A stretch of 64,000 nucleotides of DNA from Eledone cirrhosa (Eukaryota), in the NCBI GenBank assembly GCA_964016885.1, contig OZ024741.1, positions 82,088,001 to 82,152,000 on the forward strand, given 5' to 3'. Made by a program: the position numbers and the translations under genes. This document shows positions 4,601 to 45,535 of this stretch, one piece after another; the first letter of the stretch is position 1; each line of letters begins with the position of its first letter. The notes below the pieces were generated by a model. The model was given only the letters and a program-made list of their open reading frames with translations. It was not told the DNA's origin and searched no databases.

Positions 4601-5320
4601 TAGCAAATGAGGACATTTTCTAAACAATCTTTGAAAATATTTTAATCGAAATTTGTGTAAAAATTTGGAGTAAAATATTTGACATTTTGGTAAGAAAATC
4701 TTTATAAAAACTGACGGAAATAAGACAAATCTTTCGGATTAATTTTCTAAAATCTTCTGACGAAAATAGGATTTAAAATTTTTTAATCAGTTTTGAGGAG
4801 ATTTTTTAAAACGTTTTTACCACAAAATTTTATGATATATTTTATGATATATCCACACAATTACCCTGAAAATAAAAATAAAATCCTCAATTTGTTGATC
4901 ATTTGTTCAAATTCCTATTAAGATATTTTCTCAATATATTCTCATTTTATGAACATTTTCACAAAACTTTGGTTTTTCAAATATTTTCCTGAAATGTTGC
5001 TCACAGTTTTCTAAAAAAGAAACTGCTTTGATAAATTTTCCGAAAGTTTCATCAAAATTTTTTTCAAATTTTTATTTTAAACTTTTATACAGACATACCT
5101 TTTTTTTTTTTTTTATATTTTGCTTGCTAAAAATATTTTCAAATATTTTCATTAAATGTTTTACAAAATGTTTTAAGAAATTGAAAAAAAATGTTCCTAA
5201 ATGATCTAAAAGAATATTTGACGAAACATTTTAACATTCATCATAAACTTTTTTTTTTAAATTTATTGCCAAAAATGGTTTCAAAAATTTCACAAAATCT
5301 TCTTAAGTTTCTACGTAAAT
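1690..5320. repeat. Highly diverged AT-rich tandem repeat, about 5-6 units of ~570-770 bp
   Basis: Motif gaatatttgacg (or variant) recurs at 1866, 2491, 3074, 4441 and 5212. Motif gatttggagtaaaata (or variant) recurs at ~1985, 2722, 3294, 3934 and 4663. Confidence 0.75.
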
Positions 5321-5351
5321 TGCTGGCCTTGGGTTTAAGTTAAAATAGAAA

Positions 5352-5387
<36 letters not shown>

Positions 5388-5753
5388 TTATTATTATTAT
5401 TGGTCTAAGCGGACGTATTTTGCTCGCTCACAGTAAGTCGCTTTATTCGCCTGTTTAAATTATTTGTTGTTAAATATTTCTTGTAGACTTTGCTCCGTGA
5501 AGGGGAAAGTATAATATTTGGGCCTTTTGGCCCAAATATTTGAACTTTTTTTACATGTTAAAAAATTTACGAAGAAAAAAAACTTGGCTGAGCCACGCCC
5601 CCCAGCGATATGTCGGCTGTCGTGCGACAACGACGTAGAAGTTGAGAGGAGCGCTGCAGCGAAATTAACACACATTGATAACAGAAACACCAACACAAAC
5701 AAGGTAAACAAAGTCACCAATGATGCCAATAAGAACTCTAATTTGAAAAAAAA

Positions 5754-7562
5754 ATGACAGTAACAGCGACAACGAAAATACAGATAACAAAAAAAAAAAA
5801 TAACAAATACAACAACAATATCAACACCACTAACATGAAAACAACTAGCGACAACACCAACAGCAACAATACCAACTGCACCGAGAACAACGGTGGCAGC
5901 AAAGACAGCAATGATAACAGCGACAGTGCTAACAACAACACCAACAAGAACAACGTCAACAACACCCCCAACGAAAACAGGACCACTTTCGCTGCGGCAG
6001 CAGCAAAAAAGAGGCCATGCTTCAACATGGACCTCTCAAACAAAGATGAAAAGTTGGCCCTGGCATGGAAGCCTATCAAGCAAGAGCAAACTTGGGCCAA
6101 CTTAACTGTCCCGGTAGAAGCTATTGAGGCAGTGGAGCGCAAAACGGTGCTTTATAGATGCATCTCAGCACAAACCAAAAGGGCAGCGTTAATCCCACAA
6201 GAAGATATCGAAGTCCCGCTGACGTGCATCAGAGAAGACACCCAGTACATAGAGAGGGGCAGACAGTACGGCACCATTTCGGTGTTGTTCAAGTCAGAAG
6301 CCCTCGCGATGAAACACGCCATGACTCCTTGCAAAACCAGCAAGGTCATAATGTACCCCTCCCACATGGGAAAAAGAACGGCCCGTCTCCGCATTCCCAG
6401 AATCCCACCAGGACTTGACATGTGGTGGCTTCTGGGATGTGTGATTGTGGACGGGACGGATACAGACCCTATAGAAGTGACCAGAACGGCCAGAGAGGAC
6501 TGGTCCGGAGTTGACCTAGAGATCCTTCTCCAGATCAGGCCCGAGAATGTGAAGACAATCCCAGACCACATCCGCCTTCAGAATGGGACTGTCATTCACA
6601 TTATGACCGAAGGCAAAAGGCCGCAGTGTTTTGTTTGTGGGGAAAAAACCCATTTGCGAGCCTTCTGCCCTCAACTGCTGAAAGAGGCAAGGGGTCGAAA
6701 TGCTCCACTGCTGCCTACGCCGGGGCGAGGACCACAACCAACAACTGCACCGGCAAAACCACCAACAACAACACCAATAGAAAGACCACCACCAACATTG
6801 ACCACCCAGGGAGGAAAGGAGGAAAGGTGTCAAATTCCCCCTCCACCCCAAAAATACACACCCCAATAAAACCTTAAACATACATACAGACACACTTACA
6901 GAAACATACCCCTCATCTACCAGTAGTGAAAATGAGGGAAATCCAAAATCCCCCGAAATACAAAAAAGGAAACACAAAAAGAAAAAAACACTCAACAAAG
7001 CACAAAAGCACCCACAATAAAAAACGCAGACACCACCCACGCAAACATCTCTCCAATAACACCAACATCAACACCACCATCACCATCACCAGAATCCCCC
7101 AAACGCAAACAACCGAAACAGACGCAAGAACAAATATACACACAAACATCTGAAACCACAGACATCGCACTCGCAACAAACACAGATACAACCGAAACAA
7201 CACCACCAAAACCATCACCACTACAGTCACGCAAACAAATAAAATCACACCAACAAAACATACAAAACTTCGTGCTCGTCAGGAGGGCCAACAAGGAACT
7301 GATGGCCCTCGTAGCACGAAGTGAAAATATACAAAAAGAGGGGGAAATGTTTAAATCGAGCACATTTCGCGTGCCGGAAGATTTGGTTCTGGTGCGAATG
7401 TCGCTCGACATATGCAAAGAAATACGACACAGCTTTCCTCGGGACGTGGGAACCCCGAACGTAAAACCCACTTCAAGACTTTTAAAGGGGTTCCCAAAAG
7501 AAACCCCACTAACTATGGAGGTCGAACAACCCGACCTTCACAAGAGCCCGGAAGGTAAGTAA
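5754..7562 (+). pseudogene. ORF1 (gag-like nucleic acid-binding protein) of L1/Tx1 copy 1, frameshifted after 6869
   Basis: Asn/Thr-rich N-terminus, TFAAAAAK motif, CCHC knuckle CFVCGEKTHLRAFC, and Pro/Thr-rich tail. C-terminal piece in ORF 7272..7562. Confidence 0.85.
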
Positions 7563-7593
7563 ACCTTCCTCTCTCTCTGTTTAACCTGCCAAC

Positions 7594-10500
7594 ATGGCCG
7601 TATTAAGAGTAGGATGTTTAAATGTTCGAGGCTTGGGATCGTCCTGGAAGCGGGGTCACCTGCTCAACGACCTCAGGTCTATAGAAATGGATGTAATTGC
7701 AGTCAGCGAGACCAGGATTTCCGACACGCGCGCACTAGACCCCATTTTCGACGACTATCAGTTCTTTGCATCTGTTAGCCAGCCGGGAATGGGAGGCGGG
7801 GTGGCAGAGCTGTTTAGGAAAGGCCTGGACCTCGTGGTAAGGTCGTTCTTCCGGGACCCGGACGGCAAGTTGTTGGTCCTGGACGTGAACAATAATGAAG
7901 GTGGTGCCTTTAGACTGGTGGCCGTCTATGTTCCTACTGGGGCAGGACGGCCGGACTTCTTTAGACGCCTGGAAGCCTTTCTGGGTACGTCTCGCCCTTT
8001 ACAGTTAGCGGGCGACTGGAACGGAATCTTAGACGCACGCTGGGACTGTGTGGGAGTACCCGATAGGAGCAGGGGGTGCAAAAGCCTCAAGAACCTGATC
8101 AGCCAGTTCCAACTGTCTGACAGGTACCGACTAGATTTCCCTAATGCACCAGTGTGAACCTGGGCTAACCGCATAGGGTCATCTAGATCTTATATAGACA
8201 GGATATTCATTAGGAAAATAGACGGAAATAGTGTAAGCTGTCCACGTTTTGAAACGGTCGCCTATTCAGATCACAAGTTTGTGATCTGTATGGTTGACCT
8301 AGATAAGACGCGTAGGTTAGTACCTGGTTACTGGAAGCTAAACATGTCATTTCCGGCACGTAAGGCTTACAGGGACCAGGTCAATAATTTAGTTAAGAAA
8401 AAGTTGACAGGGGGAGTCGTCAACAATAGATGGAGGAGGGCTCTCAAAGGAGAGATTAGAGTAATGTCGATAGAGTTTAGCAAAGAAGTAGCATTAGAGA
8501 AAAATATAAAGGAGGGAGAGTTGGTAGATAAGTTAGACGAGGCTATTGGTAGTGGCATTGCAACTGATGTGCTAGCGGCGAGAATGGCATTAGAGCATTT
8601 CTTCAATGCGAAACACGAAGGTTGCATTGTCAGAGCTAAGGCGCGTGCTCTGAGAAACGAGGGAACCAAAGCTGTTCGATGGGCCCGCGTGACAGAGGCG
8701 CAGCGTGGTAATAAAACCACGATTCGGTCTTTGACGGACCGAGACGGGCTCGAGCTGAGCGATTCCAAGAGGATGTGTGAGGCCTTTCGCCAACATTTTG
8801 CTCGGTTGTTCGGGGGAAGTGGCGGGTCAGAGATGGTGGCGGACTTCAGTCCCTACCTCGATCGCTTGCCGCAACTCTCGACGGCTGACGCTGGGCGCTG
8901 CTAAGGCCAATTACTTAAGCCGACATTCAGGATGCCCTTGTAGGCTGCATGAGGCGCAAGTCACCCGGTTTGGATGGTCTGCCCTACGAGCTTTACGTAA
9001 ATATGCCAGACTTGTTTTCCAATCTCCTCGAAGCGCTGTACTGCAACTGGCAGCAAAACGGGAGTATTCCCAGTTCTGTGAGCCGGGGCGTAGTGACGCT
9101 GATAAGGAAAGACGAGAACAAGAGGGACACATTAGACAATTTCAGGCCCATAACTCTACTCAACACAGAGTTTAATATTTTGGCCAGGGTGTTAGCGAAG
9201 AGGTTGGCGCTTGTCGTCGGGGATTTGGTTGGGGAGGCGTAAACTTGCGCAATCGCAACCAGGTCCATACACGACAACCTCCAGCTAGCGATACATCATA
9301 GAGAGGGTAGGGTGTAAACCTGGCTTCGGTGGGGCTCTGATCAACTTAGATCAATCGAAAGCATTCGATAGGGTCGACCATCGGTGCCTGAAGGCTGCCC
9401 TCAAGGTGGCTGGCTTCGGCCCCGTCTTCAGAAGCTGGATCGCTGCAATGCACAGTGGCACCTGCTCGATGGTCAAAATTAATGGCCACCTCTCGAAACC
9501 GTTTCAGGTCTCCCGATACGTCCGTCAAGGGTGTCCTCTCTCCTCCCTTCTGTACGTATTGACTCTCGAGCCTTTACTGCGGAAGCTGGAGCTGTTGCAG
9601 GGCATCCCGCTCGAACCGGGACGCGGAAAAGCTGTGTCGGCTTATGCGGATGACATCACCGTGATGGTGTCGGACACCTCAGAAATCGTGGGGTCGGCAA
9701 CTTATTGGAGGAATATGAAAGGTTGACGGGAGCAAAAATTAACCCAGAAAAGTCAGTGGGCTTGCAACTCGGCACCTGGAGAGGCAAGTCCATGCCGTCC
9801 AACAGCGTCGTTAGGCGCTGGACGGACCGGTAAAGTTGCTAGGGCTTTGTTTCGGGCCAGACCTCCAGGTGGTTAAGAATTGGGACGAGGTGACGGGCAG
9901 GGTAGTCAGTCTCACCCAGAAATGGGCTGGGATGAAGCCATCACTGAAAGGTCGGGCGGAGGTGGCGAACATGTATATCGCGTCCGTCATCTACTACCAT
10001 CTGACTGTCGTCCCTTGCCCCCGTTCGCGCCTCGCCATCTTGGAGCGGCTCCTCTTCAAATTCTTGTGGAGGGGTCAGGTTCTGCTGGTGAGGCGGTCCA
10101 TCTGCTGCCAGCACCCTCTACGTGGATGGCTGGGCATGCCGTAGCTATTGATGCGCAGGCACGCGCTGAGGCTGCGGCATCTCCAGATATTCTGCCTAAA
10201 CGGTGAACAGGTGTGGTCACCGTTTGTTAGACGGGCCTTTCCGCAGCTCGTTTCTTTGACTGAGTTGCAGTCCTGGGTCAAGAAGAGACCGAGACTGGGT
10301 GACTGGCATCTGGAATGTTGCCAGGCACTCAATTCCCTCTACCAGGCGGGTAATTCGGTCAGTGGAACTTCAAATCTCGAGTTCTATAGAGCATTAGTGG
10401 TGGGCAAGTACGACGACACACTCGGAGAGGCTCTGGGAGTCAACGAAGTTGAACTAATCAGTCTGTACCGGAGGACTTTCGAGCCGGGGACGATGGATAA

Positions 10501-11008
10501 TATTCAAAAATCCCTCGCTTGGCAGTGCTACCGGGGGGCACTACCGGTTGGAGATAAACTCTACAGGCGCGAAAGTGCTGTCAGACGGACCTGCCCGAGA
10601 TGCGCGCAGAGCGACGAAACCGTTCTGCACGCACTCGTCCAGTGTCCGTGCATTACGGACTTGTGGAGTTATGTTGAACTGCTGTTGTCGCGTGTAGAAC
10701 GGATCCGGCTATCGGATGAGTCCATAGTGAAGATCGACCCGCCGCCTTCTTTTGGCCAGGAAGGGCAGGCAATTTTCCTCTGTCTGGTGGCAGTAGCGAA
10801 AGAGGTTGTATGGCGAACGAGGTTGAAAGGACTGAAGACAGACACTTTTCTCTTCGGCCAATCCCTCATCAACTCTTTCAAGTTTCACTTGGAAAGGAAG
10901 GTGAGGGTGGAGAGAGAAGTGCTGTCCCCCAGTACATTTTCTGAAAGGTGGGTGAATGTGGCGAGAATGGCCCGTGTGAGTGGGCCTACTCTGGTCATGC
11001 GGCTGTAG
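7594..11008 (+). pseudogene. ORF2 (AP endonuclease, reverse transcriptase, C-terminal zinc finger) of L1/Tx1 copy 1
   Basis: APE motifs LNVRGL, SET, GDWN and SDH. RT motifs GYWKLN, KSPGLDGLP, FRPITLLN, RQGCPLS and AYADDITV. C-terminal CPRC..ETVLHALVQC. Broken into several ORFs by stops and frameshifts. Confidence 0.95.
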
Positions 11009-11278
11009 GTAGGTAAATTTGAAGAGGAGAGGGGCGCCCTTCCAGGCTTCTCTCGAAGCGTCGGGTCGTTCAGGATAGGTGGAGTACCTGAGCGAACCCT
11101 GGGTGGTCATCCCCCCTATTGGGGAATGTTTTCTTGTAATTTTCTTGTTACTTTATTGTTACTTTGTTATTGTTACTTTGTTTATTCATATTGTTTACTC
11201 GAATTTTCTGTAAAACCCCACTGTACTAGTCTTTTGTATTGTCCCCTATATGTCGGCCCTCGTGGCCAATAAATGAAA

Positions 11279-11280
<2 letters not shown>

Positions 11281-11322
<42 letters not shown>

Positions 11323-15230: not shown

Positions 15231-15299
15231 TTGTTTTTTAAATTGTTTTTATCATGAGTGGTTCCTTAATGTGAGCATTGCGTGGCTTAAGAATGAAAT

Positions 15300-18200
15300 T
15301 ATTATTAATAATATAATATACTTTTTGCTGAAGTTGCCTGTTATTGTTGTTGGCTATGTCGGTGGTGGTCCTGGGGTTCACATATATTGTTTCTGAAAAG
15401 AACACAAAAAAATATTGGGGCCTTGAGCCCAAAACTTAAACTTTTTATTTATCAAACAAAATATTTATTTGAAAAAAACAACCACGGACGACATATTTAC
15501 TGTTTTTAACATACCCCTCCCCCCTCCACCACCACCACCAACACCATTGTAAGCCTTGCTACGGTTGCCAACATTGAAAATATAATTAATAGCTGTCTGA
15601 ATTATTTAGATTTGCCGCATAAAGACATGGATTTCCCGTCATTACAAATAACTGCGGGTATTAAAGCCGCCACCCCCACCACCACAATGTCAAAAAGAAC
15701 AACGAACACCACTGATACCACCACCAACACCAACACCAGAGCGAAAACAGAAACTCCCTCCCAAAAAATGATTATCTCGTGACATCGAAATGGATTCACC
15801 CAGAATCGACTCTTCCACGCCGAACACCACTGACACCACCACCACCTCCACCACAATTGAAACTAAAAATAACAACAGCCACAATGATAATAACAACAAT
15901 AACATCAACACCACCGCAAAACAAAATGTGTCATTTGCCAAAGCAGCCAAGAATAGCAAAACAATCGAGGTAAGCTAGGATGAATTAAATGAAGCCAAGC
16001 GAATGGTATAAAAAGATGGGTACAGGGTTATCACCCCCCCCCCACACACACACTTAATAAAATGGAGCATCGGCGCCTATGCACCGTATCATATCGGACG
16101 ATAAACATAAAATCATGCCGAGTGGAACGGGCATCCGAGTCCCAAATACAAAAAGCTTTGGAACGTGTGTGGGCGAAAAAACCCACATCAGACGTGGGCA
16201 GAAATATGGAACTGTGGACGTCTTCTTTGGAACAACACAGGAAGACAGAGAGCACTCCATGGTCCCATTAATCATTGACGACTTCACACTAGTCCCAAGC
16301 TATTGTGGTCAGAGACTCGTGAAGATCAGGGAGACCCACGTTCCACCAGCCATCGAAATTCCCTGGTAAATGGCTGCCGTCCTCGGCGGCTTCGAAGCCA
16401 ACACGAAAATAATCGAAGTAACAAAAGAAAAGCAGGAGAACTGGACCGGATCTGGGATGGAGCTCCTGCTCCAAGCGGACCAACAAACATTGAGGAAATT
16501 CCAGAGGTGTTAGACCTCACTGACGACAGCCACCTCACCGTCATCGTTGAAGGTAGAAGGCCTAGGTGTGTCGTTTGTGGTGAAGGAACCCACCTAAAGG
16601 CTTTCTGCGCTCAAGCTAAAAGGTTGAGGCCACCTCTCTTACCCACCCCAGTGACTAAACCATCAACACCACCAGCAGCAGAAATAGCAGCAACAACTGC
16701 AGCAGCAACAACAGAAGCAACTGTAGCAGCAACAACCACAGCAACAGTAGCAAAACCAACACCACCACCATCCACCGCTCCAGAACTAGCACCAGCGCCT
16801 ACACCATCCACCACGCCAAAACCAAAATCAACGTCTGTGGAGGATTTTCCACTCCCCGACCTATCGCAACTGGAGACAAATTGTGACGACGAGGAGTGGA
16901 AACTATCAGGAAAAAAGAAAAAAAAGAAAAAAATACTCTTCCTTCCCAATCCAAAAACAAAATACAGAGGGAAACTAATAAACTATCAAACAAAAAGGTT
17001 AGGATGGCTATGCCACTATCCACACCAGCATCACCAACCCCATCACCACAAACACCAACACCATCACCATCATTAACCCCAACACCACCATCACCAACAC
17101 CATAAAAGTCACCAAAAAGCGAAACAGAAACAAACCCACAACAAACCCACTAGCAAAGAGGTTAGCGCTTGTCGTTGGTGGTCTGATGGGAGAGGCTCAG
17201 ACATGCGCCATTCGCGACAGATCCATCCACTACAACCTCCACCTAATGCGATACATCGAGGAGAGGGTGACTAGGGAACCTGGCACAGATGGGTCCTTGA
17301 TAAATTTAGATCAGTCGAAAGCTTTCGATAGGGTCGACCACCGTTACCTAGTAGCAGTCCTGAGGGCGGCTGGCTTTGGGCACGTCTTCAGAGGCTGGAT
17401 CTCAGCCATGCACAGCGACACATGCTCTGTGGTGAGTATTAACTCTCGAGCCATTACTGCACAAACTGGAGACGTTGAGGGGGTCCCACGCGAACTAGGA
17501 TGCGGAAGATCCGTGTCAGCATATGCGGACGATGTCAACGTAGTGGTGTCGAACGCCAAACACAACGAGGAGATCGGCACTACACTAAGAGAATACGAAG
17601 CGGTGACAGGAGAAATGATCAACCAGGAAAAGTCAGTGGGCCTGCAGCTTGGCACCTTGAGAGGCAAGTCCATGCCGTCCAATAGCCTCGTCGGGCTCTG
17701 GACGGACGGACCGGTTAAATTGCTATGGGTCTGGTTCGGTCCGGACCTCCAGACGGTCAAAAACTGGGACGAGGTGACGAGCAGGGTAGCTTCTCTGACC
17801 CAGAAATGGGCAGAAGGAAGCTATCTCTGAAAGGTCGAGCGGAGGTGGCTAACGCGTACATCGCGTCCGTTATCTACTACCGCCTGACCGTTGTACCTTG
17901 TCCTAAGCCCCGCCTGACTGCGCTGGAACGTTTGCTCTTTCGCTTTTTGTAGAAGGAACGCGCTCCGATGGCCAGGCGGCCCATCTGCTGTCAACACCCG
18001 CTACGTGAAGGGCTGGGCATGCCGTGGCTGATGATGCGCAAACACGCGCTCAGGCTACGACATCTCCACCTCTTCCTCGACGGTGATCAGGTGTGGTCGC
18101 CGTTTGCCAGACGCGTCTTTCCCCAGCTCGTCTCCTTGACGAAGCTGCAGTCCTGGGTCAAGCCAAGACCAAGAGGGAGCGCTTGGAGACTGACATGTCT

Positions 18201-19166: not shown

Positions 19167-19347
19167 GAATTGTTTCAATAAACGGGGCAGGACTAAATGT
19201 TCTTTAACCATCCTTGAAAACGCTTTGAGATAGTACCCTGTGCCCCTATGACAATCGGGATGACCTTGATATCATGACAATCCCAAATCCTTTTAAACTC
19301 CCACTTTAAATCCTGGTATCGGTTAATTTTCTCTTTCTCCTTTTCTA
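19167..19347 (-). pseudogene. Short C-terminal RLE fragment of a Dong-like LINE
   Basis: Minus strand reads EKEKEKINRYQDLKWEFKRIWDCHDIKVIPIVIGAQGTISK, similar to the RLE ends at 11.6 kb and 22.3 kb. Confidence 0.75.
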
Positions 19348-19593: not shown

Positions 19594-20618
19594 TTTTGCT
19601 TGAATTCACTTCTTTCTATTTAATTTTGCTGCATTTCGTTTCAATATTACATATACAAATCGGAAATTTATTTCCCCTTTGCACTTTGTAAGTTTCTTTC
19701 TTTCTCTATTTAATAATCTTTAGAAGTGAAAGCAATATTCTATTCTCAGAGAATATTTGGCATTTACAGAAGCCAAAAATACATTCAATATTCATTTAAC
19801 GCTTAAACCTGTCAACAGGTTCGGATAAAACTTTGTTGTTATTATGAAGTGTGGTTTTTGAAGATAACTGGCAAACAAATATTCTCTGGCAAGTTCTCTA
19901 TGTAGTTATTACTATTTCAATGTGTTCATTCATAGGGATGTGGCCATACTGGTACACCGTCCTTAGCATTACTATAAGATTCAGTTGAATTTATCAATCC
20001 CTTATTTTATAAAGCAGTGATGCGCAAAATTCAAGGAATTGCGTAAGGGGGCAAGTCGTGCCAGATCAAAATAGCAAAACGCATTTCCATTGACGCGGCA
20101 TTCCTTTTACTCCCTTGCCTATTTATAAAAGGAATTACTATAATAACTCAGCAGTTCCACAGCCTTCTTAGTTTGAGATTTAGATATTTATAGTTTTCTA
20201 TCTCTGCTTTGCTTTTAATTCTTTCAACCTGGTATCGAATGGACATTCTACATATATTATCTTAGAAATTTTAGTATGTTTCTCTTGTAGAATTGATCTT
20301 ACATATTCTAGTTTATTGTTTGTCGGTATGTTCGTGTCACATTAAATATTTACTTTCTCATTTTCGACAACTTTGCCTTTTCGATTTTCGTATCACATTT
20401 CTGAAGTTTCTATTTTATATGATATATACAATTGCTAGCGTTCAACTGATGCATTTTGTTATGTCTCCATCATTTGAAATGTTTTTTGGTGCCAATATCT
20501 TACACGCTGATAGAAAGTGAGCTACATCACTTTCGCCTTCACCATATAACAAAAAAAGTAGCACTATGATCTACTTGTCTAAACCCCTTCTGGACTCCCG
20601 TGTCCATGCCGTCTCCGC

Positions 20619-20725
20619 TGTTTCTACTTTAGGCACAAGGCCAACAATCTTTTGGGGCGAGAGAAAAGTTGATTAAATCGACCTCAGTGCATTGCTGGTA
20701 CTTTATTTAATCGATTCCGTAAGGG
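20619..20725 (-). mobile_element. 3' fragment of the tRNA-derived SINE
   Basis: tgtttctactttaggcacaaggcc...ctggtactttattt..atcga matches the full copies at 25.5, 33.2 and 44.9 kb. Confidence 0.75.
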
Positions 20726-24664: not shown

Positions 24665-25482
24665 TCATATATATATATATATATATAAATACAAACATAT
24701 GTGTGTGTATGCGATTGTGTGTGTATCTGTGTGTGTATTACTGCATATAAAACACTTATAGGTTTTCCTTTGATTTAACGTGTATCAATATTTGTTACAA
24801 TTTCCTTTGATGAACAAATTGTGAGGAGAATTTATCGTTTGGTGAGAGAAACAACTTACTACAATGCATCCTATTATTTTAGCCATTTCACCCCCTGCGT
24901 GTTGTTAATTCCTTTGAGAAACAGACAAACATTAAACCACTTCATTTTCCTTCTGATATGAAAGCTGAAACCTTGAACCAATATATAAATAAACCAAAAT
25001 TATTTTCCCTTTTTCAGACTTTCACTATGTATAATTGATTCTTGATATGTATTTATTTTTCCTCGGGTGAGGTGTGAATCATGAAAAAAGTCTGTGTGAG
25101 AAAATGAAGAGCAAAAAATTTCAATATAAAAAAAGAGTTGTTGGAAAATGCCAATTCTGAGACCAAGCCAAAAAAAACAATGCTTCCATTCTATTTAATT
25201 TGTTGATAATATAGACCGCTCGCAACACCTAACAAAATGTGGCGGGATTTTAACTCACAACACAGATTTTGGTCAGAAAAGACAAATCATTTCACAGGAA
25301 ATTTTAAATGTTCCGTTAATTCACTACCCTTAGACTAGTAATGTATGTGTAACTAGCAAAAGGATGAAGGTTACCGTTAATCTTTGCGGGGTGTGAACTT
25401 ATGGCGAAATATGCCTGAAGAAATACCAAAGCATTTTATCAGATGGTCTGAAGACACAATTCACCACCTGTAGAGAAATAAT

Positions 25483-25645
25483 TGTTTCTACTTTTGGCAC
25501 AAGGCCAGCAATAACCTAGTACATTACTGGTACTTTATTTTATCGACCCCGTAAGGATGAAAGGCAAAGTTGACCGCGGCGGGATTTGAACTCAGAATGG
25601 AAAGAATGCATGACGTCCGACCCTCTACCGATACTGCCAATCCAC
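25483..25645 (-). mobile_element. tRNA-derived SINE (octopus-type) with TSD
   Basis: Minus strand has A box tggcagtatcgg, B box gagttcaaatcc and tail tgctggccttgtgccaaaagtagaaacaat. TSD ctgtagagaaataat at 25468-25482 and 25646-25660. Confidence 0.9.
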
Positions 25646-26376
25646 CTGTAGAGAAATAATATTTCAATTTGAGTGCTACATTATCTATCGCCCTAATTTT
25701 GTTCTGCGTTACTTAAACATAAATGATATTTGAAGGTTTATGGCTAATATAAGATATATATAAATATCATGTTTTAATTAAAACCATTAAGTGTGAAAAG
25801 AATGAATTGATAAGTGTCTTCGCTATCAACTGTTTCTTTGTACAGAGAAAGAAAATAGATTATTCTTATGCCACCATTTAAGATGTTATTACGTCCTCAA
25901 TAGATAATATATATCCCTAAAATTCCATGTATAGTAAAATAACTCTATAAAGAGCATTTAAAATGGTGAGTCTTGTTTCCATAAAGTACAGACGTTGAGA
26001 GTATGACCTTATAAAACCTTAAATATTTGACCAAGTCCCTTCACTGTATAATCTAGTTTCAGTTGGAACTGGTTCAAGAAAATCTAAGGAACATTTAAGC
26101 AGGAAGGAATATAAATAGACGAAAATCCAATTTTAGCTTTATACTTAATATTATTGCAGTTGTTGGTTTTATGCGTTTGTTGGTATTTTCAGTAACGAAA
26201 ACAAAATAGTTCTGACTATTTTGATGTTAGTGAAGTAAAAATGTATAGTTTTTCAACAATTTGTATATAGAAGTTCGGTAAAGAATTCGGCTGCCTAGTA
26301 TTAATTTGGGCACAAAAACACACTTACACACACACTTACACGCGCACATATACACACCGACAAACAAATTTACAAA

Positions 26377-29177: not shown

Positions 29178-31785
29178 AATAATAGAAATAATAACAATAA
29201 TTTCTTTATTGGTCACTAAGGCTTACATATAAGGGACAATAAACAGTACAGGGACAGCAGAGGTTGACAATAAAATAGAGTAACACAAATTAACAAAACA
29301 TTTAGCAATAAAGTTACAAATAAGTTCCCCGAAAGGCAGGATGACCACCCAAGGGCAGCTCAGTTACATCGAGGTCATCCGGGAAGGGCACCCATCTCCT
29401 ACTCAAATTAACCAGCCTACAGTCGCATAATCAGAGTAGGTCCATTCACACAGGCAATTCTCGCCACATTCACCCGCCTTTTAGCAAATGTACTCAGGGG
29501 CAGGACAATTTCTCCACCCTCACCTTCCTTTCCAAGTGAAACTTGATGAGTTGGCCGAAAATAATAGTGGTTGAACGAAAATAAAAGTGTCTATCTTGAG
29601 GACTTGCAACCTGTTCCACCACCCAATTTCATTAGCTACCACCACCAGACTGAGAAAAATTGCCTGTTCTCCTCGGTCAAAATAAGGCGGCGGCACAATC
29701 TCCCTTATAGACTCGGTCAATACCTGGATCAATCCAACACATGGCACCAGCTGTTCGACATAACTCCACAAATTAGTAATGCACAAAAACTGGACTAGTA
29801 CGTTCAGAACGTTTTCGTCACTCTGCGCGCATCGCAGGCAGGTCCGTCTGTCAGCACTTCCATGCCTGTGGAGCTTATCTCGAACTGGCAGTGCTCCTCA
29901 CCCGGTAACACTGGCAAACGAGTGATTTCTGGAAGTTATCCATAGATTTGAAAGTCTTCCGGAACAGAATGATCAGTTCAAATTCCTCTACGTTCAGAGT
30001 CTCTCCGACTGCGTCGTCGCACTTCCCACCACTATTCCTCTATAGAACTCGAAGGTGGAAGATCCACTGAAGGCATTTCCCGCCTGGTAGAGATCAGTGA
30101 GAGCCTGGCAATATTCTAGATGTCAGGTACCCAGTCACGCTCTCTTTTTGACCCAGCCCTGAAATTCAGTCAAGAAAACGAGCTGCACAATGGCCTGTTT
30201 CGCAAACGCCGTCCACACCTGTTCACCGTTAAGACAAAATATCTGGAGATCTGGAGATGCCGCAGCCTAAGCGTATGTTTGCGCATCATTAGCCATGGTA
30301 TGCCCAGCTCTGCATGTAGAGGGAGCTGACAGCAGATAGACAACCTAACCAACGGAACTTGTCCCCTCCACAAGAAGTTGAAGAGGAACCGTTCCTCTTA
30401 GGTGAGGCGCGAACAGGGGAAAGGCATGATGGTAGGGCGAAAATAGCTGACGAGCTCGATGTACGTGTTCACAACATCTGCCCAACCGTTCAGGGAGAGC
30501 TTCCTCTCGGTCCATTTCTGGGTGAAAATGGCTACCCTGATCGTCACCTCGTCCCACTTGTTATCAACCTGGAGATATAGTCTGAACTAGAACCCATGAA
30601 ACTTCACCGGTCCGTCCGTCCAGTACCCTACGACACTATTGAATGACATGTACTTGCCTCTTCAGGTGCTGAGCTGCAAGCTAACTGATTTTTCCGGGTT
30701 TAGTTTTGCTCACGTCAAACTTTCATATTTATTCAAGCAGGAGCTGACCACTTCGATTTCCGAGGTCTTTGACACCATCACGTTTGCGCCTCCCCTCCCA
30801 AGTCCCCGACGCAAAGCGCCAACATCTTCGCTAACACCTTGGCCAAAATTTGAAAGTCTGTGTTGAGCAGATTTATGGCCCTGAAGGTATCTAATATATC
30901 TCTTGTTCTCGTCTTTCCTTATCAGCCTCACTACGCCCCAGCTTACAGAACTTGGAATACTCCCGTTCTACTGTCAGTTACAATAGAGCGCTTCGAGAAG
31001 ATCGGAGACCAAGCCTAGGATCTCTACGTAAAGCTCGCATGGCAGATCATTCAAACCAGGTGATTTGGGCCAAGTACAGCCGACTAGGGCATCCCGAATC
31101 TCGGCTGGAGTTATCGGCCTTCCGCAGCGCTCAGGATAGGCTGACTAGAGACACGGTAGGCCGTCGATGTAGGGACTGAAATCTCGGACCCCCTCTCACC
31201 CCGAACATCGGAGCAAAGTGCTTGGAATTGTTCAGCTCCCGTTCGTCGCAGTCCGTCATAGACCTAATTGTGGTTTTGTTACCATGGTAAGCCTCTTCTA
31301 CGTGGGCCCATCAAACAGCTTTTGTTCAATCATTTTTAGAGCACGCGCCTTAGCTCTGCCGATGCACCCTTCAAGTTTCGTATTGAAGAAATTGTCTAAT
31401 GGAATTCTCCCCGCTAGTACGTCAGTTGCAATGCCACTACTAATAGCCTCGTCTAATTTTGCTACCAGCCACTTTTCTATTTTTCTCTAAAGCTACTTCT
31501 TTACTAAACCCTATCGACATTACTCTAATCTCTCTTTTGAGAGCCCCTACCACATGTTGCTTACAATCCCCCTGTCAAACTTTGATTAGCGATATTGATG
31601 ACCCGATCCCTGCTGTTGATGACCCCCACTGTCAACTTTTGCTTAGGTAAAGTGATGAACAGGGCCCTGTAATCTTTACGTGCCGAGAAGATGTTCAGCG
31701 TCAAGTAACTAGATGCTAACCTGCATATTATATCTATGTCAACCATGCAGATCACAAACTTGTGATCTGAATAAGCGATTGTTGA
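29178..31785 (-). mobile_element. 5'-truncated, degenerate L1/Tx1 copy 4
   Basis: Minus strand runs from SDHKFVICMVD (~31770) through RT remnants to ..LIMRL* (~29417). Ends in a degenerate (TTA)n tail at 29178-29201. Confidence 0.85.
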
Positions 31786-32472: not shown

Positions 32473-32823
<351 letters not shown>

Positions 32824-33010
32824 TATATATATATATATACAATATTAATAAATGGAAACTATATTTATAAAACCATATTTATTTCATTATATATATTTCA
32901 AGGATACCAAGTTAAATCATGGTATGCCTTCATCAGACAAAATACAATATATAACAGTTTTACAAATAGATATTGACGTACCCTTTCAAAAAGGTCACCA
33001 GTATATATTG

Positions 33011-33075: not shown

Positions 33076-33164
33076 AATATGGTTTTATAAATATAGTTTC
33101 CATTTATTTATATTGTATATCTACTCCAAATATTTGTCGAGTGCTTTATATCAGTTATAATAAT

Positions 33165-33331
33165 TGTTTCTACTTTAGGCACAAGGCCAGCAATTACTGG
33201 TACTTTATTTTATCGACCCCGTAAGGATTAAAGGCAAAGTCAACCTCGGCGGGATTTGAACTCAGATCATAAAGGGACGTAACTATGCTGGAAAGCATGG
33301 CGTCCGACACCGATACTGCCAATCCACTGCC
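33165..33331 (-). mobile_element. tRNA-derived SINE with 18 bp TSD
   Basis: TSD tatatcagttataataat at 33147-33164 and 33332-33349. A and B boxes on the minus strand. Confidence 0.9.
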
Positions 33332-33952: not shown

Positions 33953-33989
<37 letters not shown>

Positions 33990-36900
33990 GTTTTCTTTAT
34001 TAACCACAAGGGTTTACATAAAGTAGACATTAAGGACAGTACAGGACAATACAGGACGGTACAAATGGGCATTTCTGCGTGTAAAAAAAACAGAGGATGT
34101 AATAAAATAACAAAGAAAAATTCCCCAATAGGGGGGAGACTTCCGAGGGACATTTGTGGAGAAAGCCCATTAAAAGACCACAGTGACCCTGACCACCAGG
34201 GCAAGTGCCCTCTCCCAGTTTTCCACCTTTAATTTACAGACACATACTCAGAGAAGGCCCATTCATGCGGGCCATACTTGCTTCTCTCACCCATCTTTCA
34301 ACAAAATACTGGGAAGAGAACACTTCCCTCTCTACCCTGATTTTCCTTTTCAAATGAAATTTGAAAAAGTTGATCAGGGCATCACCGAAGAGGTAAGTGC
34401 TCGTCTTCAGCCCTTTCAAACGTGTCCACCATACTATCTCTTTCGCCATGGCCACCAGACAGAATAAAAACTGCCTGCCCTTCCCAGCTAAAGGAAGAGG
34501 GCGGGGCAATCCTCACGATGGACTCAGCTGATAGCTGGATCCGTCCTACACGTGACAGCAGGTGTTCGACATAAACCAACAAGTCAGCAATGCTCGGACA
34601 CTGGACGAGTGCGTGCAGGACGGTTTCGTCGCCCTGTGCGCATCTCGGACATTCGCGGCTCACGGCACCTCCATGCCTGTAGAGTTTATCCCGAACTGGC
34701 AAACTCCCCGGTAGAACTGCCAGGCCAGGGATTTCTCGAAGTTGTACATAGGCCCCGCCCCGAAACTGCTTCCGAAGAGATTGGCTAGCTGATTTTCGTC
34801 GACGCCTAGAGTTTCTCCAAGTACGTCGTCGCTCTTCCCCTCCAATAATCCTCTATAGAACGCCAAGGTGGAGTTTCCACCGATCACCTGCCCGATTGGT
34901 GGAGGGCTGTGAGCGCCTGAAGACATTCCAGTCTCCAAGCGTTCCCTCTCGGTCTTCGCTTGACCCAGGACTGCAGCTCAGTCAAGGAGACGAACTGGGG
35001 AAAGACATGTGTATCAAACGGCGACCACACCTGATCACCGTCGAGGAAGAGGTGGAGATGTCGTAGCCTGAGCGCGTGTCTGCGCATCATCAGCCACGGC
35101 ATGCCCAGCCCTCCAGGTACGGGTGTTGACAGCAGACGGACCACCTGACCATCGGAGCGCGTCCCTTCCACAAAAAGCGAGAGAGCAAACGCTCCAGCGC
35201 AGTTAGGCGGGGCTTAGGACAAGGTACGACGGTCACGCGGCAGTAGATGACGGACGCGATGTACGCGTTAACCACCTACGCTCGACCTTTCAGAGATAGC
35301 TTCCTCTCGGCCCATTTCTGGGTGAGAGAATCCACCCTGCTCGTCACCTTGTCCCAGATCTTGTCCGTCTGGAGGTCTGGACCGAACCAGACCCCTAGCA
35401 ATTTAACCGGTCCGTCCGTCCAGCGCCCGACGACGCTGTTGGACGGCATGGACCTGCCTCTCCAGGTGCCGAGCTGCAGGCCCACTGACTTTTCCTGGTT
35501 GATCATTGCTCCTGTCACCGCTTCGTATTCTCTTAGTGTAGTGCCGTCGCCTCAATGTGTTTGGCGTTCGACACCACTACGGTGACATCGTCCGCATATG
35601 CTGACACGGATCTTCCGCATCCTAGTTCGCGCGGGACCCCCCTCAAAGTCTCCAGTTTGTGCACTAATGGCTCGAGAGTCAATACGTACAAGAGGGACGA
35701 GAGGGGACATCCTTGGTGGACCAAGCGCATGATGTTGAACGGTTCCGAAAGGTGACCGTTCACTCTCACTACAGAGCAGATGTCGCTGTGCATGGCAGCG
35801 ATCCAGCCTCTCAAGACGGGCCCAAAGCCAGCCGCCCTCAGGACTGCCGCTAGGTAACGATGGTCGACCCTATCGAAGGCTTTCGACTGACCTAAATTGA
35901 TCAAAGACCCACCCGTGCCAGGTTCCCTAGCTACCCTCTCTACGATGTATCGCATGAGGTGGAGGTTGTCGTGGATGGATCTGTCGGGAATGGCGCATGT
36001 CTGCGCCTCTCCCACCAGACCACCAACGACAAGCGCCATCCTCTTTGCTAGCACCTTGGCCAAAATCTTGAACTCTGTGTTTAGCAGAGTTATGGGCCTA
36101 AAATCATCTATGTTATCCCCCTTGTTCGGATCCTTTCTCAGCAGCGCCACCACTCCTCGGCTCACAGAGCTGGGAATTCCCCCGTTCTGTTGCCAGTTGC
36201 AGTAGACGTCCGCCAAAAGGCCTCCGAACAAGTCTGGCATTTGTACGTAAAGTTCATAGGGCAGACCATCCAAACCAGGCGATTTACCCCTTGGGCAGCC
36301 AGTCATTGCCTCCCGTACTCAGCGGCTGTTATAGGCTTTTCGCAACACTCCGCCTCAGTGGCCGAGAGCCGCGGTAGTCCGTCGAGGTAGACACGAAAGT
36401 CCATCCCTCGATCCGGCCCGCCACTGCCTCGAACAGTTGAGCGAAGTGTCGCTGAAAAGCTTCACACATTTGCCCGGGATCGAGTAGCATGTGCCTGTCG
36501 TGGTCCACCAAAGACCGGATCGTGGCTTTGTTGCCACGACGTGCCTCCGCCACTCGGGCCCATTGAACGGCTTTCGTCCCCTCGTGTCTGAGAGCACGCA
36601 CCCTAGCTCTGACAACGCAGCCTTCGTGCTTTGCATTGAAGAATTGGTCAAGTATGTCGGTCGCGATGCCTATGCAAAGCGCCTCGTCTAATTTTCTAAC
36701 TAATTCTCCCTCTGCTCTATTTTTCTCTATTGCTAAAGCCTTACTAAACCTAATGGACTCTATTCTAATTGCTCTTTTCAGAGCAAACCACCACTTGTTG
36801 TTGACGATGGCCCCCGTCAACGCCCGCTTAACTAGTTCGCTAATCCGGTCTCTGTAGGCCTTGCGCGCTGGTATGGACGCGTTTAGCTTCCAGTAGCCGG

Positions 36901-39900
36901 GTCCTCGTCTATGAAGCCTATCTAAGTCAAGCACACAGATCACGAATTTGTGGTCCGTGTAGCTGACTATCTTGAATTGTGGACAGCCTATGCTAGACCT
37001 ATCTATTTCTCTACAAAATACTCTATCTAGATATGATCTGGATGACCCTATGCGATTTGTTCAAGTCCACATTGGCACATTTTATTGTTGACAATGGCCC
37101 CTGTCAATGCCCGCTTAACTAATTCGCTAATCCGGTCTCTGTAAGTTTTGCGCTCTTAACGACGCGTTTAGCTTCCATTAGCCGGGTCCCTGTCGATGAA
37201 GTCTATCTAAATCAATCACACAGATCACAGATTTGTGGTCCGTGTAGCCGACTATCTTGAATTGTGGACAGCCTCTGCTAGACGTATCTATTTCCCTACA
37301 AAATACCCTATCTAGATATGATATGGATGATCCGATGGGGTTTGTCCAAGTCCACATTGGTACATTCGGGAAATCCAATCGGTACCTGTCAGACAGTTCA
37401 AAATGCCTGAGCAGGTTGGTGAGACTCTTGTACCCTCCTTCCCTATCCACTAATCCCACACAATCCCAGCGTACATCTAAGATCCCGTTCCAGTCGCCCA
37501 CTAACACTAAAGAGCGAGACGTTCCAAGAAAGGTCTCCAGACGCCCGAAGAAATCAGGCCACCCTGCTCCTGTCGGGGCATAGACGGCCACTAACCTGAA
37601 AGCTTGCCCGTCTCCGCTGGTCACGTCCAGCACCACCAACTTACCTTCTGGGTCCAGGAAGATGGCCCGTATGGCAAGATCTAAACCTCTCCGAAAAAGC
37701 ACAGCAACACGTCCCCCCGATCCAGGACGGCTGGGAGATGCGTACACATCGTAGCCGCCGAAGATCGGTGCGAAGGCCCGTGCTTCGGAGATTCTGGTCT
37801 CGCTGATGGCCACTACATCTATGTTTAGTGACCTGAGGTCGTTGAGCATGTGGCCCTGCTTCCATGACGACCCCAAACCACGCGCATTTATGCTGCCTAT
37901 TCTGAGTGAGGTCATGTTGAAAAGGAGTGGAAAAGATGGGAAAGACCACTTACCTTACTTCTCGTAGAGGAAGGACGGTTTTTCCATCCTTTTCACTGCT
38001 TGTGGCCTCCTCAGGAAGGATGTCCTTATAAATCCTCCTGGAGAGTGCTTGTCGGAAGTCTCCGATGTCTTTGGGGAATTTATGTTTTAGTGTCATGTAC
38101 GTTTGATGGTTGATGCGAGTCATGTGTATGTGTGGAGGTGGTGTGAATTTTGGGGTTGTTGTGTAGTCTTTTTCTGTGATGCTGGTGCTGTGTTGGATGT
38201 AGTGTAATAATTGCTTGTTGTTCAAATTTAATGCTGTGTAGTGTGTATCGTTTTGGTTGTTTTGTTTTGTTTGCGTTTGTTGTGGGTTTGTTTCTGTTTC
38301 GCATTTTGGTGACTTTTGTGGTGTAAGTGATGGTGGTGTTGGGGTTAATGATGGTGATGGTGTTGGTGTTTGGCGTGATGGGATTGGTGATGCCGGTGTG
38401 GATGGTGGCATATCTGTCCTAACTTTTTTGTTTGTTAATTTATTTGTTTCCCTCTGTATTTTCGTATTTGGAGGGGGAAGGAAGAGAATTTTTTCTTTTT
38501 TGGTTTCTTTTTTTTTCCAGATACCGTTTCCCACTCCTCGTCGTCACAATCTGTCTCCAGTTGTGATAGGCCGAGGAGTGGAAAATCCTCCACAGGCGTT
38601 AGTCTTGGTTGTGGCGTGGTGGATGGTGTAGGCGCTGGTGCTAGTTCTGAAGCGTTGGGTGGTGGTGGTGTTGGTTTTGCTGGTGGTGGTGGTGTTGGTT
38701 TTGCTACTGTTGCTGGGGTTGTTGCTGTTATAGTTGCTTCTGTTGTTGCTGCTACAGCTGTTGCTGTCATCTCTGCTACTGGTGGTGTTGATGGTTGAGT
38801 CACTGGGGTGGGTAGGAGAGGTGGCCTCAACCTTTTAGCCTGAGGGCAGAAATCCCTTAGGTGGGTTCCTTAACCACAAACGACTCACCTAGGCCTTCTA
38901 CCCTCGACAATTACGGTGAGGTGGCTGCCGTCAGTGAGGTCTATTACCTCTGGGATCTCCTCAATGCTTTTTTGGTCCGCTTGGATCAGGAGCTCCATCC
39001 CAGATCCGGTCCAGTTCTCCTGCTTTTCTTTTGCTATTGCTATTATCTTTGTGTTGGCTTCGATGCCGGCGAGGACGGCCGCTATTAGCCAGGGAATTCC
39101 GATGGCCGGTGGAACGTGGGTCACCCTGATCTTTACGAGTCTCTGGCCACAATAGCTTCTGCCCACGTCTGATGTGGGTTTTTCTTACCCACACATGTCC
39201 CAAAGCTTTTTGGATTTGGGACTCGGATGCCCGTTCCACTCGGCGCGATTTTACATTTATTGTTCGATACGACACGGTGCATAGGCGCCGATGCTTCATT
39301 TTATTAGGTGGGGGTGTGGTGTGAGGCTGACCCTGTACCCATCTTTCTTTACAATTTTTTTGGCATTTTCTAATTCCTCCTGAGTTACCGTAAATGCTTC
39401 GCACTGTTTTGCTACTCTGGCAAAACTCAGGGTGGTTTTTTTAATGTCATTGTTGTTGTTGTTGCTATCGTTATTTTTGTTATTATTAATTTTAGTTTCA
39501 GTTGTGGTGGTGGTGACGTCAGTGGAGTTCGGTTTGGAAGAGTCCATTTTGGTTGAAAATATTTCGAAATCACGATTTGCTTTATTTTTTCCTTTTGTTT
39601 CTGTTGTCGCGGTGGTGGTGGGGTGGTGGTTGTCGCAGTGGTGGTCGTGGCGGCTTTAACACCTGCAGTCATTGGTAATGGCGGGAACTGAATGTCTGCC
39701 TGAGACAAATTTAAAATATTGCTAGTGCTAAATTTGTTTGTGTTGGCAAACGTAGTATCATTTACAATGGTGGTGTTGGTGTGAGGTGTTAATTTGTGAG
39801 GAAGGCTTTCAGTTGCTTGGTGCAGAGGTGAACTAGCCATTTTTTTTTTCAAAGAAATTTTTTGATAATCATAAAAGTTTAAATTTTGGGCACAAGGCCC

Positions 39901-40080
39901 CAATCTTTTTGGGTGTCCTTTTCGGAAAACAATGTATGTGCGCTTATATATAGCTAACAATAAAAATTTTCCATAAATAGCAATTTTTAACACACGGAAA
40001 TAACAAACCTTTGCGGAGCTCGCGATGATACGATTTACTACGTAGGTCGCCAATAATAATAAAAATAATAATAATAATAA
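33953..40080 (-). mobile_element. L1/Tx1 copy 3, full length, inactivated, with an internal tandem duplication
   Basis: (TTA)n at both ends. ORF1 at ~39840-37950. ORF2 begins at 37915 (MTSLRIGSINARGLG), includes GKSPGLDGLP, HQGCPLS, AYADDV and CPRC, and stops at ~34234. Confidence 0.93.
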
Positions 40081-41403: not shown

Positions 41404-41559
41404 TATAAATATATATATATATATTTATTTATTCAGGTCTGAAGGTTCACCACTGGATAGAGCTGGTCAATTCCGTATAGTCAATCTTAATGTAATAATA
41501 TGGAGAGTACCCAGCGTAAAGCAGTTCAACCGTCTTCGTGTTTGTAGTTGGTAGTGCTA

Positions 41560-44500: not shown

Positions 44501-45535
44501 TAAACCTCGCAACCCCAAACCTTAACAAATGTTTTAAACTGTTTAATTTTAAATTTTCTAATTGTTTATTATTCAATTTTCGAATTCGTTATTTTTATAA
44601 TGCTAATCTTTAATTTTTTTTTAACTTCATCCTATAAATCTAAACAAAAATTTAACGTTCCTATTTCCTGTTGGACTGTTGGGTTGGTTTTCCTGGCTGC
44701 GGGACCGGCCTCCTGGCGCATAAGCCTACCTGAGTGCTTGGAAAAATAAATTTCCTCTTCTTTCGGTAAATGAAATTACTCGGAGTGGCTTGATTCCCCC
44801 CAGGGGCCCGACGCGTAGCCGTTTTTTGACCGCCATATAGTACCTTTAAATTCTAGACCTAATCATATCTATTAGATGTATCATGCCTCCCTCTACTTAA
44901 ACAAATCCCCCTCCTGGGTAAATTAATTGTTTCTACTTTAGGCACAAGGCCAGCAAATTACCCAGTGCATTACTGGTACTTTATTTTATCGACCCCGTAA
45001 GGATGAAAGGCAAAGTTAACCTCAACGGGATTTGAACTCAGATCGTAAAGGGACGTAACTATGCTGGAAAGCATGGCGTTCGACCCTCTACTGATACTGC
45101 CAATCCACCGTGGGTAAATTAATAGTACTAGTTTGGTACAAGGGTGGCCTAGCGGCGAGGGCTGTCTTCCCACTAGCACACCTGAAGCCTGATATACATT
45201 CCTAGTGTGCTTGGAAAAATTGATTTCCATATCTTTCGCTAGGCGACCTCATTCGGAATGACTAACACGCGGTTAGGATGGGCTGGCCGGAGTCTGCAGT
45301 CGCCGCTTGATGTTTGATTGCTAAACAAGGACAATCTTTACTCCATAATACAATTAAAGTTTCTTCATAAAATAATCTTTCTTTAACTAAACCTCGCAAC
45401 CCAAAACCTTAACAATTTTAAACTGTTTAATTTTCAATTTTCTAATTTTTTTAATTTTATAATGTTAATCTTAAATTTTTTAATTTTTGTAACTTCATCC
45501 TATAAATCTAAACAAAAATTTAACGTTCCAATCTT
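41560..45535. repeat. ~4 kb imperfect palindrome with internally tandem-repeated arms
   Basis: Left arm 41560-43268 and right arm 43640-45535 are reverse complements. Each arm has two ~600-750 bp units. Part of the spacer (43496-43624) is directly repeated at 41432-41559. Confidence 0.88.
44928..45110 (-). mobile_element. tRNA-derived SINE with 13 bp TSD
   Basis: TSD tgggtaaattaat at 44915-44927 and 45111-45123. The empty site is in the left arm at ~41896-41908. Confidence 0.9.

Follow-up and report, generated by a model that had tools for sequence, protein, structure and literature searches.

The hairpin motif that precedes ORF1 in the Tx1-type LINEs of the window, by which we mean the whole 64-kb stretch of octopod DNA analysed, may have originated as the 3' terminus of a retroposon, similar to a SINE tail, which was captured by an ancestral LINE of this type and kept as a second RNA site for its own protein. 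We place the probability of this reading, which was drawn from sequence comparison, at about 0.45. The origin of the motif by capture of a 3' terminus appears probable, and the binding of the 5' motif by the element's own protein is a plausible suggestion made by analogy. The sequence-only reading had mentioned as an alternative that the 5' UTR arose from a captured 3' end; for the part of the 5' UTR considered here this has become the best-supported idea, in view of the ATT-like run-on behind the motif, a SINE match of 31 of 35 bases, and the position of element 1 behind a SINE-tail remnant.

The window is rich in repeats and contains three LINE copies that retain both ends (elements 1-3, with 5' motif copies 1-3) together with two fragments (Table 1); elements 2, 4 and 5 are truncated or deleted. 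Elements 2 and 3 form one family, with 87-92% identity over most of their length and 71% at the 5' part. Element 1 belongs to another family and is 72-73% identical to the first in ORF2 DNA and 32-46% identical in ORF1 protein. The ORF2 pieces of elements 1-3 carry Exo_endo_phos (APE), RVT_1 (RT) and zf-RVT (C-terminal zinc finger) domains. Against an alligator protein annotated as transposon TX1 the RT scored 171 bits, compared to 82 bits with human L1 ORF2p; a protein of Argonauta hians has 71% identity to one RT piece. Each of the two-ended copies, which are three only, has (ATT)n on either side, and an empty copy of the host repeat of element 3 already contains (ATT)3. Based on these flanks and on the tract in the empty repeat, (ATT)n is likely the insertion target of these LINEs.

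Table 1. Positions of LINE copies, hairpins and SINEs in the 64-kb window
Feature	Position	Strand	Remarks
SINE-tail-like remnant plus (ATT)n	5315..5401	+	host of element 1 insertion
Element 1, decayed full-length Tx1-type LINE	5402..11280	+	(ATT)n both sides: 5357-5401, 11281-11319
Element 1 parts	5' UTR; ORF1 core 5742-6869; ORF2 pieces 7585-11008; 3' UTR	+	
Element 1 5' UTR hairpin	5513..5540	+	12-bp stem; core GGGCC-TTTT-GGCCC at 5520-5533
Conserved 77-nt block	5513..5589	+	hairpin, AAAC/GAAC + T-run, A-rich run, ORF1 start position
Element 1 3' hairpin GGCC-CTCGT-GGCC, then AATAAA	11255..11273	+	pair probability 0.95-0.99
Element 2	about 15307-19139	+	internally deleted
Element 2 5' UTR hairpin GGGC-CTTGA-GCCC	15418..15430	+	
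Element 2 3' hairpin AACC-CTTGT-GGTT, then AATAAA	19115..19133	+	two pairs changed on both sides vs element 1
SINE tail a	20618..20655	-	closest match in the window to element 3 5' motif
SINE b, tail TGGC-CTTGT-GCCA	25476..25646	-	tRNA-type A/B boxes by eye
Element 4 (5'-truncated), damaged 3' hairpin	29211..29223	-	2 of 4 pairs broken
SINE c, tail GGC-CTTGT-GCC, then ATT repeats	33159..33331	-	
Element 3	40051-33987	-	(ATT)n at 33954-33986
Element 3 3' hairpin AACC-CTTGT-GGTT	34002..34014	-	
Element 3 5' UTR hairpin GGGC-CTTGT-GCCC	39888..39900	-	ends 48 nt before ORF1 ATG at 39840
Element 3 5'-terminal CpG-rich block	39998..40051	-	candidate internal promoter (inferred)
SINE d, tail GGC-CTTGT-GCC	44921..45109	-	

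The three hairpins that had been described upstream of ORF1 were recovered as described. Copy 1 (5513-5540) reads AATATTTGGGCC-TTTT-GGCCCAAATATT and is a perfect 12-bp stem, copy 2 (15418-15430 on the plus strand) is GGGC-CTTGA-GCCC, and copy 3 (39900-39888 on the minus strand) is GGGC-CTTGT-GCCC. Copy 1 has a fold z of -4.25, matched by none of 200 shuffles, and a stem pair probability of 1.0 in the whole UTR. Copies 2 and 3 have 4-bp stems with fold z of -0.5 and 0.0, no better than shuffles, and their pair probabilities are 0.41-0.45 and 0.17-0.20, respectively. The 12-bp stem, being present in copy 1 only, was rejected as a common feature. The loop of copy 1 also differs (CTTTTG, or TTTT), which disfavours loop-specific recognition. 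A 17-nt pattern allowing up to 3 mismatches has seven sites in the window, in the three 5' UTRs and the four SINE tails, compared to 0.15 expected (0 of 100 shuffles); two of the seven are built in, as the pattern was derived from copies 2 and 3. In both families, 110-150 nt of the repeat unit precede the motif. It should be mentioned that an Rfam scan at gathering threshold gave no match in the 64 kb, on which ground a histone-type 3' stem-loop was rejected. The stem-agnostic 5' pattern had no match in prokaryote genomes, and the tail pattern had none in viral contigs.

Besides the hairpin, the palindrome TTGGG-N8-CCCAA occurs exactly three times in the 64 kb, once in each 5' UTR, and its spacing is identical despite a hairpin register that differs between the families. 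A palindrome of fixed spacing fits a DNA site equally well. It could be the site of a dimeric factor (on TTGGG-N8-CCCAA or GGGC-N5-GCCC) within an internal promoter, in which case the hairpin would be incidental, wherever the sequence came from. The arms are invariant, none of the five stem pairs being changed on both sides among the three 5' copies, so compensation is lacking, and pairing is predicted to be weak in two of the three copies. These observations favour a DNA-level element. However, the near-identity of the motif to a SINE terminus, including the spacer and the ATT remnant, and the layout that it has in common with the covarying LINE 3' hairpins point to an RNA-recognised unit, and the promoter explanation appears rather unlikely to us. 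We know of no factor with the site TTGGG-N8-CCCAA. The related TGGC-N5-GCCA, presumably the NFI consensus, was rejected as a candidate, its one match in the window lying in SINE b and none in the 5' UTRs.

The 5' UTRs had been described as divergent except for one motif. The motif is indeed kept, but the conserved unit is a 77-nt block that extends to the ORF1 start and not the hairpin alone. Elements 1 and 3 are identical in 59 of its 77 columns (77%), with a score of 56 against a null mean of 21 that none of 300 shuffles reached. At the start position, element 1 has TTG (at 5584) where element 3 has ATG. Neither the 110-150 nt upstream of the block nor the ORF1 DNA downstream aligns between the families, and the expectation that the motif is more conserved than the flanking UTR was borne out at this level. 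When 25 windows over the first kb of element 1 were compared, the two over the block scored 29 and 43 (null maxima 26 and 25); 2 of the 23 others also exceeded their null maximum, with 37 vs 34 (low-complexity) and 26 vs 21. Conservation extends for another 50 nt, as far as the start codon, and the hairpin alone does not account for these. The conservation of the block between families is about that of ORF2 DNA, which argues for selection. The block is AT-rich and partly homopolymeric.

Conservation within the family of copies 2 and 3 was evaluated with contigs from four public sequencing runs, aligned to positions 39700-40056 of element 3 at 80% likeness. The alignment yielded 1,181 contigs from run X1, 42 from X5, 3 from X7 and 0 from X9, the last of which may be a filter effect. 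All 30 bins of the stretch are covered in X1, X5 and X7, and one X7 record spans it entirely. The complete coverage in three runs indicates that the motif lies inside a multi-copy unit of at least three organisms. A target site outside the element was rejected as an interpretation of the motif, the family contigs being continuous across 39700-40056. In X1, none of the eight stem positions varies at 7% or more and one of the five loop positions does, the last loop base being T or A at 45/55 (40 of 41 substitution rows). Position 39870 is A in 52% and T in 29% of depth (81% together), so that the family sequence continues as AAAC-TTTT-ATA/ATT-ATT. Sites polymorphic at 7-93% of depth, counted by hand, number 2 of 41 in the motif, 8 of 86 in the spacer, 11 of 130 in the ORF1 start region and 0 of 59 at the 5' terminus (40 of 41 rows); these shares are rough, since contig depth favours majority variants in conserved stretches. 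The motif does not differ significantly from its flanks (2/41 vs 19/216, p = 0.54; p = 0.50 in the other flank comparison). The 5' terminus is more conserved than the spacer (0/59 vs 8/86, p = 0.02; X1, 40 of 41 rows). The summed depth, which is no copy number, has maxima over the 5' terminus, over the motif and over one block of ORF1. The 5'-terminal CpG-rich blocks at 39998-40051 (minus strand) and 5402-5440 (plus strand) are completely unlike between the families. This dissimilarity, together with the invariance of the element 3 block within its family, suggests a likely promoter replacement.

These data bear on whether the motif has any function. A captured or exchanged tail could be a relic, kept alike because SINEs and LINE 5' ends have recently exchanged sequence by template switching or gene conversion. 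Such an explanation is consistent with the lack of significant excess conservation within the family, with the AT-rich, partly homopolymeric composition of the block, and with a much better match to the SINE tail in the family of copies 2 and 3 than in copy 1. It does not readily explain 77% identity over 77 nt where the adjoining UTR and ORF1 DNA no longer align, or why the distance from the stem end to the ORF1 start position has been kept, at 51 nt in element 1 and 48 nt in element 3. We consider a functionless relic unlikely.

The closest relatives of the motif in the window are the tails of the SINEs, in which A and B boxes of tRNA type can be read by eye. These SINEs may be of Deu/Nin type; one Nin/Deu central-domain pattern searched at 3 mismatches gave no match. 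The element 3 motif aligns with the SINE tail at 20618-20655 over 38 columns with a score of 39, which none of 300 shuffles reached, and with the other three tails at scores that 0-2 of 300 shuffles reached. For element 2 the corresponding range is 2-34 of 300. Over the whole UTR, copy 1 gave no significant match to the four tails (98-239 of 300 shuffles as high). The proposal that the same hairpin recurs in the LINE 5' UTRs thus holds for the SINE tail and copy 3, but not for copy 1 against the SINE tails, and the LINE 3' ends have only the layout in common. Two X7 contigs, which come from another species, match the motif ungapped at 31 of 35 and 30 of 34 bases, with a SINE-type flank before the motif and ATT repeats after it. 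The SINE homology ends about 13 nt upstream of the stem. In the SINE tails, the stem pair probability is 0.02 or less in three of four and 0.4 in one. With tails at 20618-20655, 25476-25510, 33159-33195 and 44921-44955, the SINE has loop, spacer and ATT tail in common with these Tx1-type LINEs, which may mobilise it, or its partner may be another LINE outside the window.

In the window, no LINE 3' end is as near to the SINE tail as the 5' motif is, and a reverse transfer, or a third LINE as donor to both the SINE and the 5' UTR, is therefore possible. Reverse transfer has also been considered by us in combination with a terminator or attenuator, in which the hairpin and a T-run would give a short 5' RNA and the SINE would have taken its tail from the LINE 5' UTR. 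A run of 4-8 T follows the stem at about 11 nt in each of the three copies, and pieces of LINE 5' UTRs do enter SINEs, as described for RTE and Vingi middle bodies in the available part of PMC5786205. On the other hand, the summed X1 depth over the motif is similar to that over ORF1, and no short 5'-only element was seen among 11 of 67 loose ends, which is a weak argument; the ATT-like tract after the motif is also explained more simply as part of a captured tail. This combination seems very unlikely.

SINE tail, LINE 3' end and 5' motif have a common layout. At the LINE 3' ends it consists of a 4-bp stem, a CTYGT loop, about 12 A-rich bases and then ATT repeats, and in elements 1-3 the hairpin is followed by AATAAA before the repeats. 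Among the LINE 3' hairpins (4 copies, 3 families), two of seven predicted pairs are changed on both sides. In an alignment of 13 ends, three of four pairs are changed on both sides, and the covariation score, reached by 8 of 500 shuffles, is above all slid controls; the rows of this alignment are related, its classes were compared after loop alignment, and it includes the doubtful end 15120-15300. The inner pair is G-C in the 5' and SINE copies and C-G in the LINE 3' ends, and the outer stem position is unpaired in 6 of the 13 rows. Four Watson-Crick pairs around CTYGW, a pattern chosen after the motif was known, were found at seven sites in the window, six of which are located at a SINE tail or at the 5' UTR or 3' end of a LINE, with about 1.4 expected. 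Comparisons of the 5' UTRs with the 3' UTRs of elements 1-3 were non-significant in nine of nine cases (28-256 of 300 shuffles as high), by which a 5'/3' direct repeat like that of TART was rejected. With 60-nt windows, one of six comparisons was reached by 2 of 300 shuffles and the others by 36 to 285. Nine comparisons of SINEs with LINE 3' ends gave 0-191 of 300 shuffles as high, with 8 or fewer in three.

The same layout at both ends could also serve as an end-bridging or template-jump signal. A single particle would hold the two ends together and thereby restrict copying to full-length RNA, or prime second-strand synthesis; for the 5'/3' direct repeats of TART a template jump has been proposed, according to the accessible part of PMC1636488. 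However, the stem letters differ between the ends, with no sequence repeat, the motif lies 110-150 nt inside the element rather than at its terminus, and truncated or deleted copies exist (elements 2, 4 and 5). Of the explanations weighed, bridging as the main function is the least likely.

Returning to the capture of a retroposon tail, the position of element 1 directly behind a SINE-tail remnant and (ATT)n provides the layout that capture needs. We propose that a LINE copy cut just upstream of ORF1 landed in the (ATT)n tail of a SINE or LINE, and that the upstream tail was then copied with the LINE by read-through or template jump. The resulting order would be hairpin, spacer, ATT remnant, short A-rich leader and start codon, and family-specific promoter blocks would have been added upstream later. 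If the tail hairpin is under selection, the simplest selected property would be binding by the protein that reads the tail. By analogy with stringent LINEs, ORF2p would read the hairpin of the 3' end and the SINE and would bind the 5' copy too; ORF1p may be an alternative binder. The fixed distance to the start codon suggests that binding at about 50 nt from it would damp ORF1 translation during particle assembly, and bridging of both RNA ends is a possible further effect. With AATAAA absent from all three 5' UTRs, the 5' copy would avoid premature polyadenylation.

ORF1 of the window copy has no Pfam match. A zf-CCHC domain (zinc knuckle) is present in 10 of 44 aligned ORF1 relatives, and a structure model with pLDDT 92 has tandem RRMs as its best fold matches (E 2e-5, TM about 0.3-0.4). 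By these features ORF1 is a predicted RRM-zinc-knuckle RNA-binding protein. A HMMER search returned 267 ORF1 relatives, of which seven of the ten checked bear Argonauta or Octopus names; a word-index search with ORF1 gave no match. The RT alignment found no relatives in viral contigs. In metagenomes it found 47 distant Tx1-like loci, at most 49% identical and none recognisably octopod. The four-pair CTYGW hairpin is in none of the 47, many of which are without one or both element ends. In two of these loci (L002 and L006) the 3' ends run into what we take to be U2-snRNA-like sequence, presumably of Keno type, and in another (L007) the 5' end presumably starts U1-like.

Recognition of a hairpin by a LINE protein has precedents in the accessible parts of the literature. 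ORF2p binds the tail stem-loop in L2 elements (PMC4176376), and human L1 ORF2p engages an RNA stem-loop (PMC10830416). The tails of the stringent LINEs ZfL2-1 and ZfL2-2 (zebrafish) and UnaL2 (eel), as described in the available text of PMC4176376, resemble those in the window in having a short stem, a conserved loop and a dozen bases before a microsatellite, in a layout common to LINE and SINE and with a stem that covaries at the 3' ends. Unlike them, the LINEs described here are of Tx1/L1 type and have a further copy in the 5' UTR, a putative binding site. Stringent tails lie at the RNA 3' end and the 5' motif does not, being in the 5' UTR; it may nevertheless work like such a tail. Hairpins common to LINE and SINE 3' ends are well known and rare in the L1 clade (PMC3472496, PMC3747384), where three among more than 800 families have SINE partners (PMC3472496, as far as its available text goes). 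The stringent L1-clade pairs LINE1-1_ZM/ZmSINE2-3 and L1-1_CR/SINEX-3 likewise have a SINE-shared 3' hairpin with variable stem and fixed loop; these are from monocots and Chlamydomonas, respectively, whereas the window LINE probably belongs to the animal Tx1 group and has an (ATT)n tail, and no 5' copy of the hairpin is described for those lineages in the available parts of the two reports (PMC3472496, PMC3747384).

Gain of foreign 5' sequence is likewise recorded. According to the accessible part of PMC4494074, Tx1-Mar and SINEU acquired 5' additions by template jump or 5' transduction, and the Tx1-clade elements Kibi, Koshi, Keno and Tx1-Mar resemble the window LINEs in domain order, in a microsatellite target and in having gained foreign 5' sequence. 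In contrast to Tx1-Mar and SINEU, the target here is likely (ATT)n, and the piece that was probably gained is a retroposon 3' tail inside the UTR and not a U1/U2 head. In Drosophila TART, the 5' UTR is repeated in the 3' UTR. TART and HeT-A (tandem promoter) are similar in having related sequence in both UTRs and in head-to-tail insertion behind the tail of another element; the TART repeats, however, are long and near-identical, and those considered here are about 35 nt with differing stem letters (available parts of PMC1636488 and PMC5537684). Pieces of LINE 5' UTRs have been found in SINE heads and bodies, which is a comparable homology between LINE 5' UTR and SINE; in the accessible parts of these sources (PMC5786205, PMC4758252) the heads and middle bodies come from RTE, Vingi and Nimb, unlike the SINE 3' terminus and Tx1-type LINE of the present case. 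The mollusc SINE partners named in the available text of PMC11481361 and PMC4824008 are CR1, CR1-Zenon, L2 and Nimb. Octopus repeat surveys name L1-Tx1 and tRNA-Deu families and, in their available parts, leave the ends undescribed (PMC13282606, PMC9115989); for O. vulgaris, 13 L1-Tx1 families with recent activity are given in PMC13282606. Our literature search, mostly without subscription journals, Repbase and Dfam, found no tail-like hairpin in a Tx1 5' UTR, and family consensuses may contain the motif; a search with an 11-letter motif found no retroposon paper by title.

In its broadest form, the proposal is that octopod Tx1 LINEs carry an RT-recognition hairpin at both ends through an ancient capture of a SINE or LINE tail, that the second site so gained in the 5' UTR links translation of ORF1 to the assembly of the particle or holds the RNA ends together, and that the hairpin also allows these LINEs to mobilise the octopus tRNA-type SINE; taken as a whole, this is rather unlikely. 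The questions addressed are the use of the 5' UTR in APE-type LINEs beyond promoting transcription and the choice of template by L1/Tx1 elements. A natural element with its tail signal repeated before ORF1 would offer a compact system, open to direct mutation, in which to test whether LINE proteins bind at the 5' end. Such an element would moreover be a documented case of an autonomous element that has incorporated a SINE tail, and it provides a candidate partner for the octopus SINE. Should the motif prove to be no more than a promoter site or a relic, what is left is a modest note on 5' UTR turnover.

Several other features of the window are noted. Directly upstream of element 1, positions 1744-5236 are occupied by an AT-rich satellite that repeats about every 630-650 nt. 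At 11320-15297 on the minus strand there is a decayed single-ORF LINE with (TAA)n at both ends, which we take to be of Dong/R4 type, inserted tail-to-tail in the (ATT)n of element 1. A 3' fragment similar to this LINE abuts the tail of element 2 (19167-19346). The Tx1 and Dong-like elements have one microsatellite in common, in opposite orientations. The stretch 15120-15300 looks on the plus strand like a Tx1 3' end, with a T-rich UTR, an imperfect hairpin, GAAA and ATT repeats, and on the minus strand it is the expected place of the 5' UTR of the Dong-like element. Against the three Tx1 3' UTRs, 3, 55 and 56 of 300 shuffles scored as high, so that one of the three was matched. It was first read as a Tx1 3' end but could instead be 5' UTR sequence of the element on the opposite strand, and is possibly a second LINE 5' end that resembles a tail.

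At 32575-32825 and 57416-57665 there are two 3' fragments from a further LINE family, presumably RTE-like; they end in (TA)n or (TAGAA)n and are without the CTTGT hairpin. Within the endonuclease region of element 3, a 287-nt tandem duplication (36795-37081 and 37082-37366) is 88% identical. Nested inverted repeats of 200-780 nt with 77-95% identity at 41425-45538 are possibly a foldback or DNA-transposon cluster.
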